This document shows, in pieces, positions 34,589-37,794 of a stretch of DNA of 64,000 bases. The position numbers were made by a program, and so were the translations under genes. How positions within the stretch are numbered: the stretch's first letter is position 1; each line of letters starts with the position of its first letter. Below the pieces are notes generated by a model. The model searched no databases and was not told where the DNA came from. It saw only the letters and a program-made list of their open reading frames with translations. The stretch spans positions 76,901-140,900 of the forward strand of contig DAOPYQ010000003.1 of NCBI GenBank assembly GCA_035352955.1, written 5' to 3'. The stretch comes from Candidatus Omnitrophota bacterium. GTDB taxonomy: Bacteria; Omnitrophota; Omnitrophia; Omnitrophales; Aquincolibacteriaceae.

Positions 34589-36655
34589 TTAGCTCTGAAA
34601 AGACGCCTGATATTTTTCGACCAGCGTGCGGGCGATCGTATCGTGGATTTTCTGAACTTCGTCGGAAACGAGGGTGCGAACGGGCGACTGATAGATCACG
34701 CGGAACGCGAGGTTCTTGCAGCCTGAGGGAACGCGCTTGCCGCGAAAAAGATCGAACAAAACGACGTCCCGGATCAGCCCCTGCCCGAGGCCGCGGATCT
34801 CGCCCGTCAGATCCCCGCTTTTGACGGAGTCCTTCACAACGATCGAAAGGTCGCGTTCGATCGCGGGATATTTCGGCCATTCCTCGAATTTCCGAACCCC
34901 CCGGGCGTGCTCCAGAAGTTTCTCGAGCGACACTTCCGCGTAATACACCGGCTCCTTAAGATCCCATAGCTTCAAGAGTGCCGCGGACACCTCTCCCATA
35001 AAAGCCACCGGCGTCTGCCAAACGCGGAGCTCCTCGGCGATCCCGGGCGCGAAATAACTTTTTTCGGATTTTGCGACGCAAAGCTCCGTCGCTCCGGCGA
35101 TCCGGAGAATCGCCTCAACACACCCCTTGAGATCATAGAACGTCGCAGGCCTCGCCTGATCGAGCCAGGTCTGCGCCGCTTTCTTGCCGTAAAGGGCGAT
35201 GGCACAAATACACTCTTCCACGGGGTGTTTGTGACTATCGGGCATCGCATAGATATTGGCGATCTCGAACACAGCGACCGAATCAGCGCCCCCGGCATTC
35301 ACGTTCGTCCGGATCACGTTGAGGAGGCTCGTCACCATGGTCGGCCGCATCCAGTGGAGCCCATGCTGAAGCGGATTCACGATCTGCACGGCATGTTTCA
35401 GGTCTTTTTCGGGATCCAACCCGTCTTCGGCGATAAGGCTGAACGTCACGGTCTCGGAAAGCCCCGCGCCGCTTAGCTGCTGACGGACCTTCTGCTCGAG
35501 CGCGAGCCTCGGATTTTCGTTCACGGCGATCGGTGCCCTGGCCGGAAGCGTTTCGGGAATGTTCTCAAAACCGTAGATCCGCGCGATCTCTTCAACAAGG
35601 TCAACCGGACGCGTCAGGTCCGGCCGGAACGAAGGGATGCCGACGGTCCATACTTCGGCGGAATGCTGTTTCACGTCGAGGCCGAGCCTTCCCAGGATGA
35701 GCGAGATCTGGCTCGACTTGATCTCCACACCGAGAACCGACTTCACATCGTCGCTGCGGAGCGAAACGGTCTTGACGGCAAGCTGGGGCTTCTCCCCCGC
35801 CTTGATCATCGCGCTGATGTGGCGCGGCTTGGCGTACTTTTTGATGAGCGCGAGCGCGCGGCGGCTGCCGAGGTCCACGGCTTCGGGGTCCACCCGGCGT
35901 TCAAACCGGTACGAAGAATCGGACGATAACTGGTGCCGGCGCGAAGTCGCCCGGACGCGTCCGGGATTGAAGAAAGCGGATTCGAGGAAAACATTCCGCG
36001 TGCGATCCGTGATCTCGGAATCCTTACCGCCCATGACCCCGGCCAGGGCGACCGCGTGATCGCTGTCGGCAATGACCAGATCGTCGGGTTTGAGTTCAAG
36101 GGAACTGCCGTCGATCATCAAAAGTTTCTCGCCGGCCTTGGCCTTGCGAACCTGGACTTCTTTGCCCTTCAGCAGATCAGCGTCGAACGCGTGGAGCGGC
36201 TGGCCGACCTCAAACAAAACATAGTTCGTGATATCGACAATGAGGTTGATGCTGCGGACACCGCACGCGAGGAGACGGTCCACAATAAAATCCGGCGTCT
36301 TGGTCTCCGTGATCCCTTCGATCAGGACCCCGGTATAATACGGACAGCCTTCGACATCCTTGATCTTGATGTCCCATCCAGGCGGCGGCACACTGCGACC
36401 CGCCTCGGGATCAACCGCAGGACCTTTGACGGAGATATTCTCGACCGCGGCGATCTCGCGCGCGACACCCCAATGGGAAAGCCAGTCGGGACGGTTCGAG
36501 GTGATCTCGATCTCGAAGAGCGTGTCCGAGGGACTCTTGAGCGTCTCGCATTTTTTGACCTCGAGACCGGCAAGCGTCAGACGCTCGGCGATCCGCGAAA
36601 GCGGCGGCGCCAACGTGATGAAATCCTTCAACCAGTTTGTCGATATTTTCATCAA
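34589..36655 (-). CDS. pheT: Phenylalanine--tRNA ligase beta subunit (688 aa, TTG start; it lacks the usual N-terminal tRNA-binding domain)
   Basis: B3/B4, B5, FDX-ACB and catalytic-like domains are recognisable. The protein starts MMKISTNWLKDF. Confidence 0.88.
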   Translation of the reverse strand: MMKISTNWLKDFITLAPPLSRIAERLTLAGLEVKKCETLKSPSDTLFEIEITSNRPDWLSHWGVAREIAAVENISVKGPAVDPEAGRSVPPPGWDIKIKDVEGCPYYTGVLIEGITETKTPDFIVDRLLACGVRSINLIVDITNYVLFEVGQPLHAFDADLLKGKEVQVRKAKAGEKLLMIDGSSLELKPDDLVIADSDHAVALAGVMGGKDSEITDRTRNVFLESAFFNPGRVRATSRRHQLSSDSSYRFERRVDPEAVDLGSRRALALIKKYAKPRHISAMIKAGEKPQLAVKTVSLRSDDVKSVLGVEIKSSQISLILGRLGLDVKQHSAEVWTVGIPSFRPDLTRPVDLVEEIARIYGFENIPETLPARAPIAVNENPRLALEQKVRQQLSGAGLSETVTFSLIAEDGLDPEKDLKHAVQIVNPLQHGLHWMRPTMVTSLLNVIRTNVNAGGADSVAVFEIANIYAMPDSHKHPVEECICAIALYGKKAAQTWLDQARPATFYDLKGCVEAILRIAGATELCVAKSEKSYFAPGIAEELRVWQTPVAFMGEVSAALLKLWDLKEPVYYAEVSLEKLLEHARGVRKFEEWPKYPAIERDLSIVVKDSVKSGDLTGEIRGLGQGLIRDVVLFDLFRGKRVPSGCKNLAFRVIYQSPVRTLVSDEVQKIHDTIARTLVEKYQASFQS

Positions 36656-36693
36656 AACCTTTCGACCCGGATCAAAACCCGGTCTTGCAGAAG

Positions 36694-36833
36694 TTATGCA
36701 AATTGTCCTCGCGCCAATGCGCGAGGACTATCGCGTGCGGCCCTACGGACAACCCGCTACGCGAATTGCCTTCGCGCCAATGCGCGAGGACTATCGCGTG
36801 CGGCCCTACGGACAACCCGCTACGCGAATTGCC
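36694..36833. repeat. 63-nt tandem repeat (two full units plus a diverged third copy) at the pheS 3' end and the pheS-pheT spacer
   Basis: Units 36701..36763 and 36764..36826 differ by 2 nt. Each unit carries the hairpin TCCTCGCGC-CAAT-GCGCGAGGA. On the minus strand each unit ends in CAA-TTC-GCG-TAG (Q-F-A-stop) in frame with pheS. The third copy ends CAA-TTT-GCA-TAA at 36705..36694. Confidence 0.85.
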
Positions 36834-37794
36834 TCAAAAACCGCAGATCGTTCTCGTAAAAATGGCGGATATCGTTGATGCCGTGGCGAAGCATGGCAAT
36901 ACGCTCGACGCCCATACCGAACGCGAACCCCTTGGTCACGCTCTTGTCATAGCCGACCTCATCAAAAACGTTCGGGTCCACGCTCCCCGCGCCGAGGATC
37001 TCAAGCCACCCCTTCCCCCACTGGATATCGATCTCAACGCTCGGTTCGGTAAACGGAAAAAAGTGCGGGCGGAAACGGATCTTGGTTGAAGATCCGAAAA
37101 GTTCGCGCAGAAAAAGATGGAGCACGCCCTTCAGATCGCTGAACGTGACGGCGCCGTCGACCATCAGGCCCTCGATCTGGTGGAACATGAACGAATGGCT
37201 CGCGTCGACGGTGTCCGGGCGGTACACGCGTCCCGGTGCGATGATCTTAAGGGGCGGTTTCCGGTCTTTCATCACGCGGATCTGTACGGTCGACGTTTGG
37301 GACCGGAGCAGTTGTCCCCGTGGCGTATAGAACGTATCAAAGGAATCGCGCGAGGGATGGTCCAGCGGGATATTGAGTGCCGTAAAATTATGAAATTCAG
37401 TCTCGATCTCGGGGCCTTCGACGGTTGCGAACCCCATCCGGTGAAAGATCGCCGAAATTTCGCGGATCGTCTGTTGAAGGATGTGGATGCTCCCCTTGGG
37501 AAGCGGAACTCCGGGAAGCGTCGGGTCGAAAATCTCCCCGGAAGCCCCCGCTTGCGGCGCCTTGGCGCGTTGCTCCTCGACCGCGGCCTCAAGCCATTGT
37601 TTCACGCGGTTAAGTTCGGCACCGACCGCCTTTTTTTCTTCGGCCGGAACCGCACCAAGCTGCTTGAAAAGTTCGGTGAGTTTTCCTTTTTTTCCGAGGT
37701 AGGCGACGCGGAAAGCCTCGATCCCGTCCGGGGAATTCGCACGGGCAAGAGCCTCCCGCGCTTCATTTTCCAATTGGACGATCCGGTCTTTCAT
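36820..37794 (-). CDS. pheS: Phenylalanine--tRNA ligase alpha subunit
   Basis: Class II aaRS motifs FRPHFFPFTEPS and GFAFGMGVERIAML. Confidence 0.93.
   Translation of the reverse strand: MKDRIVQLENEAREALARANSPDGIEAFRVAYLGKKGKLTELFKQLGAVPAEEKKAVGAELNRVKQWLEAAVEEQRAKAPQAGASGEIFDPTLPGVPLPKGSIHILQQTIREISAIFHRMGFATVEGPEIETEFHNFTALNIPLDHPSRDSFDTFYTPRGQLLRSQTSTVQIRVMKDRKPPLKIIAPGRVYRPDTVDASHSFMFHQIEGLMVDGAVTFSDLKGVLHLFLRELFGSSTKIRFRPHFFPFTEPSVEIDIQWGKGWLEILGAGSVDPNVFDEVGYDKSVTKGFAFGMGVERIAMLRHGINDIRHFYENDLRFLRQFA

Follow-up and report, generated by a model that had tools for sequence, protein, structure and literature searches.

A doubled 63-bp hairpin-forming module at the 3' end of pheS in a Candidatus Omnitrophota genome, with homologues inside miaB of relatives

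The closest described analogues of the element reported here are the Rickettsia palindromic elements (RPEs), whose in-frame insertions into genes are summarised in PMC10969869, and other intragenic repeats that are MITE-like (MITE, miniature inverted-repeat transposable element), such as ERIC, BOX and QMITE, that also insert in-frame. Repetitive extragenic palindromes (REPs) and REPINs form a further group, the concept of which is set out in PMC3116915, PMC3337134 and PMC3479197. We investigated a 63-nt tandem array between pheS and pheT, which encode the two subunits of phenylalanine-tRNA ligase, in the metagenome-assembled genome (MAG) of a Candidatus Omnitrophota bacterium. The window, meaning the whole stretch of DNA analysed, comprised 64,000 nt of contig DAOPYQ010000003.1. 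It is well supported that the repeated unit is a module otherwise seen in miaB, which was inserted at the pheS terminus and doubled. With moderate confidence, we regard the array as a doublet of a low-copy, site-specific, hairpin-forming 63-bp insertion element. We class this element as a new, very small, codon-phase-preserving form of a known kind of insertion element, and a recent survey of Omnitrophota genomes held nothing on such an element.

Like RPEs, the unit is a short, hairpin-forming, non-autonomous insert with a length that is a multiple of three, and it is tolerated in-frame inside an enzyme (the linker of MiaB), where it encodes a conserved-looking, fast-evolving peptide and is patchily present among relatives. 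This palindromic presence/absence insert corresponds to the +21-amino acid (aa) class at one linker position, with 24/117 MiaB homologues filled. Unlike RPEs, which are about 100–150 bp, multi-copy, and found at dozens of unrelated sites, it is 63 bp long, numbers no more than two copies in any genome examined (none in some), and has two known sites with one target motif; it has no terminal inverted repeats and comes from a different phylum. Insertion into many unrelated genes of one genome was not seen, only miaB and pheS. The resemblance to REP/REPIN sequences (RAYT, IS200/IS605-like Y1) and IS200/IS605 mini-elements lies in a pair of neighbouring GC-rich hairpins that directly follow a stop codon within an operon, in insertion beside a specific short sequence, and in orientation specificity. 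GTAG adjoins the first hairpin (A) in the window and miaB copies, and ATAG does so in the relative L094. REPs, however, lie outside genes in tens to hundreds of copies, whereas this element is non-dispersed and has its main home in a coding sequence; no RAYT or TnpA gene was identified here, the window open reading frames (ORFs) not having been scanned for transposases. Compared with MITEs, terminal inverted repeats matching a parent insertion sequence (IS) were lacking, no parent IS was identified, and the loci numbered two across genomes (miaB and the pheS 3' end).

Two other known processes leave similar arrangements. As with islands and phages that integrate at the ends of tRNA or tmRNA genes, the insert carries a sequence resembling the 3' end of its target, leaves the gene intact, and displaces the original end, which persists downstream as a direct repeat. 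Those elements are kilobases long and carry an integrase, whereas the insert here is 63 bp without coding capacity, and the regenerated end is only about 11/14 nt identical. As in slippage-type tandem duplications and minisatellites, near-identical head-to-tail units with a partial third are bounded by direct repeats, which slippage or unequal exchange would also leave, but the repeated unit is imported and has homologues in another gene of other genomes. The defining sequence features of integron attC and GTTRRRY core sites, dif/Xer sites, the template/variable repeat pair of diversity-generating retroelements, and translational bypass ('hop') elements did not fit by eye.

Tandem Repeats Finder, proposed as a check in the preliminary description of this DNA, reported an array of period 63 at 36701-36834 (2.1 copies, 97% matches, score 254), the sole long-period array in the window. 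On the minus strand, pheS ends ...AGG CAA TTC GCG TAG, with the stop at 36822-36820. The sequence CAATTCGCGTAG at this end is repeated exactly 63 nt downstream (36768-36757), and CAATTTGCATAA lies another 63 nt further on, at 36705-36694. The array can accordingly be written as CAATTCGCGTAG plus 51 nt, CAATTCGCGTAG plus 51 nt, and CAATTTGCATAA in the phase of the preliminary description, and its statement that Q-F-A-stop is re-created in the pheS frame at 63-nt steps was confirmed by the sequence; all three recurrences share the frame because 63 nt equals 21 codons. Likewise, the two full units differ at 2 nt in this phase, both at the junction, and in the phase of the miaB copies unit 2 differs from unit 1 by a single base. 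The reported three tandem repeats have a real 63-nt period and consist of two full units and a 12-nt partial third. This third 12-mer matches 9/12, a quality reached by 39 matches across the window, and is meaningful only because of its register with the array. The final 14 nt of pheS (36833-36820) fall within unit 1, the reverse complement of which provides the codons (R)QFA and TAG.

Short tandem repeats can be mis-assembled in MAG contigs, and an artefact through collapse or expansion was considered. Contigs from SRR4236661 and SRR5007244 carry an identical pheS, and both end at ...GAGGCAATTCGCGTAGCGGGTTGTCCGTAGG, exactly 31 nt past the point at which the contexts of pheS and of the unit-1/unit-2 junction converge. 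This is where de Bruijn assembly with k=31 is expected to break if there are at least two tandem copies, and the repeat is therefore taken as real. With two independent read sets breaking at the predicted k-mer and the two units differing at two positions, we give an artefact very little credence.

An exact 20-mer of the unit core had three matches in 185,579 species-representative genomes. Two of them (L089 and L091, both Omnitrophota MAGs) fell at one and the same position of miaB and, relative to the pheS reading of the window, on the opposite strand; the third was a chance match in a Microbacteriaceae MAG. The plus-strand translation of the window reads ...LAPMREDYRVRPYGQPATRIA..., as compared with LAPGREDYRVRAQGQPATRFA in MiaB; it runs free of stops as QIVLAPMREDYRVRPYGQPATRIAFAPMREDYRVRPYGQPATRIAS, and the L089 MiaB reads QVALAPGREDYRVRAQGQPATRFA at the matching place. 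Core identity of the window copies to these two miaB copies was 0.83-0.89. In 117 MiaB homologues, the distance between two conserved flanking motifs was 52 aa in most sequences (empty) and 73 aa (+21) in 19 filled ones, namely 18 database matches and L089; distances of 82 (+30), 64 (+12) and 72 (+20) aa were found in two, two and one sequences, respectively. Filled alleles thus made up 24/117 in total and about a quarter of the close Omnitrophota relatives. The insert was always at the same codon position, in the linker from the N-terminal methylthiotransferase domain to the radical-SAM domain, and falls in a gap when aligned to the solved MiaB structure (PDB 7MJZ). At the DNA level, the indel was exactly 63 nt (filled L089, L091, L098 and L099 vs. 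empty L092/L093), and the miaB copies were open reading frames throughout. Homology between the window and miaB stops at the same indel boundaries, which argues that the unit is a discrete module and not a random piece of miaB or pheS. The site is empty in the MAG's own MiaB (HNX68539.1), whose gene shares a 448-kb contig with that of PheS HNX68502, 37 genes away. A filled miaB of the present genome is therefore ruled out as the simple source of the pheS copies.

Some other features of miaB were observed. The length variants (+30 in P0130 and P0203, +12 in P0159 and P0177, +20 in P0181) share the linker position of the +21 form; the +30 form looks like the 21-aa module plus nine residues (PQGLRENAV) in the region of the second hairpin (B), and the +12 forms look like internally deleted remnants. 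In empty alleles, the residue before RIKQDG is mostly Ala, with F, L, V or S in several sequences; these need multi-nucleotide changes from GCC and might be excision footprints. The MAG's own MiaB, P0165, reads RKHVLRIKQDG. In L099 (886-2664) and L091 (214-1092), where the MiaB N-terminus is altered, the start of miaB is overlapped by the gene immediately upstream, which encodes a large serine recombinase (Resolvase/Recombinase/Zn_ribbon_recom); this suggests an integrated element at the miaB 5' end. No link between the recombinase and the 63-bp insert was seen, as L089 and L098 have no recombinase.

Every copy was preceded by a motif close to GCARRTYGCC and ended in the similar GCRRATYGCC. 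The target motif is AAGCAGRTYGCC in miaB and TATGCAAATTGCC in pheS (the reverse complement of the terminus), and it is resembled by the element's own 3' end, ...CTACGCGRATYGCC. In miaB sense, the empty site is AAG CAG ATC GCC / CGG ATC, and the filled site is ...CAR GTY GCC [CTCGCG ... CCC GCT ACG CRR ATY GCC] CGN ATC. The window in the same sense is ...TTATGCAAATTGTC [CTCGCG...CTACGCGAATTGCC] [TTCGCG...CTACGCGAATTGCC] TCAAAAA, where the brackets mark 36708-36770 and 36771-36833. Imperfect direct repeats of 7-13 nt flank every copy, and those around the element inserted at pheS were put at 10-14 nt. On the pheS strand, the element end GGCAATTCGCGTAG is identical to the displaced target GGCAATTTGCATAA at 11/14 positions, and Q-F-A-stop was rebuilt because of this resemblance. 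The chance of an arbitrary insert restoring F, A and the stop was estimated at about 4 in 10,000; the restoration is best explained by the similarity of target and element end together with the survival of harmless insertions only.

The pheS-pheT junction was surveyed in about 75 Omnitrophota loci, as the preliminary description had proposed. Most junctions overlap or nearly abut (TGATG, ATGA, or 0-6 nt), and several lineages have unrelated spacers of 50-270 nt that hold other small palindromic sequences. The C-terminus of PheS in relatives is RQF or RQF+X; RQFA is common, and many end RQF without the final Ala. P0013 and P0005 have RQFA-type PheS with spacers of 55 and 102 nt. The element was found at 2 of the ~75 junctions, the window and L094. 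In L095/L096, L016 and L015, pheS ends CA(R)TTYGCNTAA and is followed by a short spacer with a hairpin homologous to the last 41 nt of the window spacer. When both 63-nt units were removed in silico, the window aligned collinearly with the pheS end and spacer of these relatives; CAATTTGCATAA is therefore the original pheS terminus and not a degenerate new copy. Before the insertion, the spacer in the lineage of the window was 41 nt long and included a likely ribosome-binding site for pheT, which was already uncoupled; the translational linkage of pheS and pheT that had been assumed applies to many relatives but not to this genome.

L094, with a PheS 86% identical to that of the window, carries the 63-nt unit once in this position at pheS and is arranged as ...CAG TTT GCA TAG, 51 nt, CGGTTTGCATAA, and then an unrelated second mini-element. 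Its core identity to the window copies was 0.72-0.74, below the 0.81-0.89 that it and they each show to the L089 miaB copy, and because no derived characters are shared, the sequences suggest two separate arrivals at the same pheS site in the two lineages. The second mini-element (GTCATCCCCGAA...CGGGGATCCAGTTCTGGATTCCCGCTTTCGCGGGAATGAC) occupies the pheS-pheT spacer in L005 (10976-11097) and L094 (3012-3080), and look-alikes with GTCAT...ATGAC ends were seen in other such spacers, with similar types in L037 and L044. In Omnitrophota, small palindromic elements appear to have landed repeatedly between pheS and pheT.

Two hairpins form in each unit. The 5' arm of hairpin A in each unit, CGCGTAGCGG, contains TAG, and in unit 1 this is the pheS stop. 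A perfect 9-bp hairpin had been described for every unit; it is present in the pheT-proximal unit (36727-36706), and the stem is imperfect in the pheS-proximal unit, at GCGCGAAGG. The outermost T-A of the nine pairs of unit 2 owes its pairing to a C-to-T change in the relic of the old pheS terminus, the pair 22-43 is UA in this copy only, and the RNA fold extends the stem to 10 pairs by a closing G-C. Unit 2 folds at −38.6 kcal/mol (z = −5.3), the entire spacer has z = −4.9, and together the hairpins would contribute about −70 kcal/mol of structure to the RNA between the cistrons, with the pheS stop inside a stem. Across the seven DNA copies, 89.7% of hairpin cells were paired (90.5% for hairpin A), compared to 25-63% in slid controls, and two pairs of hairpin B showed compensatory double changes (L091 and L098), a number reached by 7/500 shuffles. 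The peptide encoded by the miaB insert is variable despite nucleotide conservation of the core. Judged from these alignments, the conserved property is DNA or RNA structure, not protein. No terminator-like site was found on the minus strand at 36300-37200, where the hairpins lead into CAAUU or AUAG and not into the U-tract of an intrinsic terminator, and there were no relevant promoter sites near the array. The Rfam scan at gathering thresholds returned only three tRNAs, all elsewhere in the window; a permissive scan of 36600-36900 gave a top score of 15.8 bits against thresholds of 35-627. Searches for tRNA or tmRNA-like genes at the array were negative.

The distribution of the insert among MiaB sequences ignored the tree of its host gene. 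On the MiaB tree, for which an empty root was inferred, a minimum of 21 state changes is required to account for the 24 filled alleles. Shuffling of states within an 82-member subclade gave an expectation of 21.0 ± 1.5 changes; the observed number equals the random expectation, and gain and loss in miaB have been so frequent that no phylogenetic signal of presence is detectable. Distances of the insert peptide and the host gene were uncorrelated (Mantel r = 0.11, p = 0.25), and MiaB pairs only 6-10% apart in protein distance differed in filled or empty state. Identity of the 53-nt core among miaB copies was 0.68-0.92, as against 0.71-0.77 for the flanking miaB coding sequence, which is under strong constraint; the core was at least as similar as the flank in five of the six miaB pairs (0.75-0.92), the exception being L098-L099 (0.68 vs. 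0.72). One genome had miaB filled and pheS empty (P0132 and L011, on one 37,528-nt contig), and no single genome had more than one occupied locus in the data examined.

On this evidence, the best reading of the insertion at pheS is a small selfish insertion and not a stop-codon safety device. An element of two hairpins, non-coding here, entered the last codons of pheS in antisense orientation. Its end took the place of GGCAATTTGCATAA and supplies identical amino acids and a stop, and the original terminus was displaced downstream and is now a decaying relic. The second copy could have come from re-insertion beside the first or from slipped-strand or unequal exchange between the direct repeats; either is feasible because the element regenerates the target motif and has flanking direct repeats, and the two unit differences at the junction are compatible with both. 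The slippage hotspot suggested in the preliminary description is thus reasonable for the second copy, although the unit itself was imported and is not local sequence. The in-frame recurrence of the stop would be a by-product of the 63-nt (21-codon) length. In the RNA, four stable hairpins lacking U-tracts would result, between two cistrons that were uncoupled beforehand. A neutral outcome is probable; at most, the hairpins would resemble REPs in acting on mRNA stability or on the efficiency of termination at the pheS stop, an effect that might be expected by analogy with REPs, whose roles are summarised in PMC3479197.

That the element is actively mobile, as opposed to being spread by recombination and rare ectopic copying, is what we chiefly infer, and several points weigh against it. 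No transposase or recombinase was linked to the element (the window ORFs were not scanned for transposases), the known target sites are only the two in miaB and the pheS 3' end, and 880 kb of related loci held no further copies. Terminal inverted repeats were absent, as the ends CTCGCG... and ...CTACGCG(RATYGCC) share only the self-complementary CGCG. Two origins of the flanking repeat are conceivable: duplication of a 7-13-nt target or, as in site-specific or single-strand insertion, a core brought in by the element and matching the target. One observation supports the second, namely the end of the L099 miaB copy, CGAATTGCC, which is exactly that of the window copies. Patchiness in miaB could reflect homologous allele exchange and precise deletion between direct repeats in place of transposition. 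The MiaB tree was a neighbour-joining tree on protein identities with the insert segment removed, the case for independent rather than shared pheS insertion rests on 53 nt, and the empty state of the miaB of the window genome was read from protein, not DNA. Collection-wide DNA scans used exact short patterns only (the one 20-mer, and an 18-mer in viral contigs) and may have overlooked further sites, if there are any. A word-indexed peptide search with the 46-aa translation of the window returned one candidate and no match, but lacked power. A profile of the 21-aa module searched against 1.84 billion representatives found only an unrelated repeat protein (P0241, AFAALREDGSVVTWG repeats), and this search was uninformative because MiaB itself was not recovered. 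The viral contigs (18-mer) and plasmids (blastn) gave no match.

A bolder version of the insertion-element reading is that the unit is a non-coding, codon-phase-neutral, two-hairpin 'homing' mini-element of a kind not described before, moved by an enzyme encoded elsewhere and repeatedly invading one motif; we hold this as a tentative possibility that is more doubtful than not. If true, it would be a homing element open in four of six reading frames, perhaps moved via a single-stranded intermediate, that targets miaB and pheS, both of them tRNA-Phe-related, throughout a clade of Omnitrophota and, by regenerating its own target, could build tandem arrays. Should a dedicated mobilising enzyme exist, its rule (insertion after GCARRTYGCC with regeneration of the site) could be mechanistically interesting. 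More generally, a repeat at a gene end can mark a tiny insertion element with an end that resembles its target, so that an essential gene survives unaltered and its former terminus persists as a fossil. As a 21-residue enzyme insert, this 63-bp module has a distribution that ignores phylogeny, and it offers a compact and tractable case of selfish DNA reshaping protein linkers as well as intercistronic regions in an uncultivated phylum. For annotation, these MiaB length variants and pheS-pheT spacers should be read as insertion polymorphisms.

The main competitor to a mobile element is a resident, polymorphic segment of miaB that was copied once or twice to pheS and then slipped. Such copying could proceed by microhomology-mediated template switching or illegitimate recombination via the ~10-nt GCARRTYGCC at both junctions. 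It would account for there being two sites only, each sharing a motif of ~10-14 nt with the element end, for the missing enzyme and terminal inverted repeats, for the very low copy number, and for at least one genome with miaB filled and pheS empty (P0132/L011). It must suppose, however, that the donor was lost or foreign, since the miaB of the window genome is empty, and the copies in two pheS lineages lack shared derived changes. The lack of phylogenetic signal in miaB would demand very frequent exchange or loss, and the insert is exactly 63 nt also in the non-coding pheS context. We consider this explanation unlikely, though the strongest of the rivals.

Explanations based on function at pheS-pheT fared worse. 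The hairpins could have been kept as a stabiliser of pheS mRNA, for attenuation of pheT, or as a stop-codon structure tuning alpha:beta stoichiometry, in line with their very stable folds (z = −5.3 for unit 2), a stop codon embedded in hairpin A, pairing conserved through two compensatory changes, and the effect of operon REP elements on mRNA turnover noted in PMC3479197. Most relatives have a tight pheS/pheT overlap and no element. Within miaB, too, the hairpins are conserved, there in coding sequence and in the opposite orientation to the gene, so that conservation follows the element and not pheST. With no terminator-like U-tract and no Rfam family match either, this role is improbable; nothing found pointed to a function, and any selected role at pheS-pheT is unlikely because nearly all relatives lack the element. 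The serial back-up stops proposed in the preliminary description, capping read-through of pheS at +21 or +42 residues, draw on three in-frame stops at 63-nt spacing, but this spacing is automatic for a 63-nt unit that must also be in-frame in miaB. Relatives vary between 0, 1 and 2 copies (one has a single copy and most have none), the third stop is the old pheS stop, and the C-terminal Ala is dispensable, as many PheS end RQF; we regard the proposal as highly improbable. A generic, dispersed REP/REPIN-type family that happens to follow pheS is just as hard to sustain. GC-rich palindromes do lie just past a stop codon within an operon, and GTAG does adjoin hairpin A in the window copies, but it is not conserved in L094. 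No other copy was found in the 64-kb window (51-mer and 22-nt hairpin, up to 3 mismatches) or in the 880 kb, and the 20-mer occurred in two other genomes only, both times inside coding sequence. The related suggestion that a REP-like hairpin captured the pheS 3' end was right in placing a hairpin element at the gene end; no capture took place, as the 63-bp module existed beforehand, occurs within miaB as well, and has an end of its own that resembles the pheS terminus.

Coordinates of the features are collected in Table 1. The genes on the minus strand of the window are ordered thrS-infC-rpmI-rplT-pheS-pheT.

Table 1. Features at the pheS-pheT junction (window positions; the strand of the insertion units is the miaB-sense strand).
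Feature	Position	Strand	Description	Basis
pheS (phenylalanine-tRNA ligase alpha subunit)	36820..37794	-	324 aa, C-terminus RQFA-TAG	ORF list
Insertion unit 1 (pheS-proximal)	36771..36833	+	TTCGCGCC...CGAATTGCC, 63 nt	nhmmer E 6.6e-21; alignment with miaB inserts and L094 copy; tblastn with MiaB
Hairpin A, unit 1	36795..36826	-	CGCGTAGCGG / CCGCACGCG, 13-nt loop	RNA fold
Hairpin B, unit 1	36769..36790	-	TCCTCGCGC ATTG GCGCGAAGG; imperfect: 6 bp, one mismatch, 2 bp	
Insertion unit 2 (pheT-proximal)	36708..36770	+	CTCGCGCC...CGAATTGCC, 63 nt	nhmmer E 4.6e-23
Hairpin A, unit 2	36732..36763	-		RNA fold
Hairpin B, unit 2	36706..36727	-	TCCTCGCGC ATTG GCGCGAGGA; perfect 9-bp stem in DNA	
Relic of ancestral pheS terminus	36694..36707	-	GACAATTTGCATAA, originally GGCAATTTGCATAA (..R Q F A stop); third 'copy' of the preliminary description and target-side direct repeat	
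Ancestral pheS-pheT spacer ('tail')	36653..36693	-	homologous to L095/L096, L016, L015 spacers	
pheT (beta subunit)	34589..36652	-	ATG start 36652-36650	N-terminus MKISTNWLKDF agrees with relatives

The PheS of the window is 100% identical to P0001 (PheS of a Candidatus Omnitrophota MAG; Pfam PF02912 and PF01409) and to the NCBI proteins HNX68502.1 and HPS37438.1. The mechanical ORF list started pheT at a TTG one codon before the ATG, and the Pfam domains B3_4, B5 and FDX-ACB were found on the PheT products of relatives. The present pheS-pheT spacer measures 167 nt, most of it taken up by the 2.2 head-to-tail copies of the unit. Its ancestral part was predicted to fold into a small hairpin, CCGGGU-UUUG-AUCCGG, followed by GAAAGG ahead of the pheT ATG, which is likely the ribosome-binding site of pheT. 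The same part holds a 9-nt direct repeat, GGTTTTGAT on the minus strand, at 36651-36659 and 36671-36679 (20 nt apart); one copy, the "second", includes the pheT start codon, and relatives do not conserve the repeat. A 172-codon antisense ORF at 36360-36878 (+), which reaches into the 5' end of pheT and the 3' end of pheS, reads through units 1 and 2 in the MiaB-like frame, and its product would contain two copies of the 21-aa module. It is probably a by-product of GC-rich antisense sequence.

Conserved spacers of other types were observed in distant relatives. L042, L056, L064 and L069 share GAACCCCGCCCTTCC...GGAAGGGCGGG before a GTG start, and L071 and L080 share TCCCGCACCTTCT...AGAAGGTGCGGG before an ATG. 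The sequence after the pheS stop in these spacers is complementary to that before the pheT start, including the likely ribosome-binding site, and could form a structured leader controlling pheT translation. L014 has a 265-nt pheS-pheT spacer (1012-1276) with a small ORF-like stretch, starting ATGGTGCGAAAGATTCTTGTCGG and rich in hydrophobic codons, which may represent an inserted gene for a small membrane protein.

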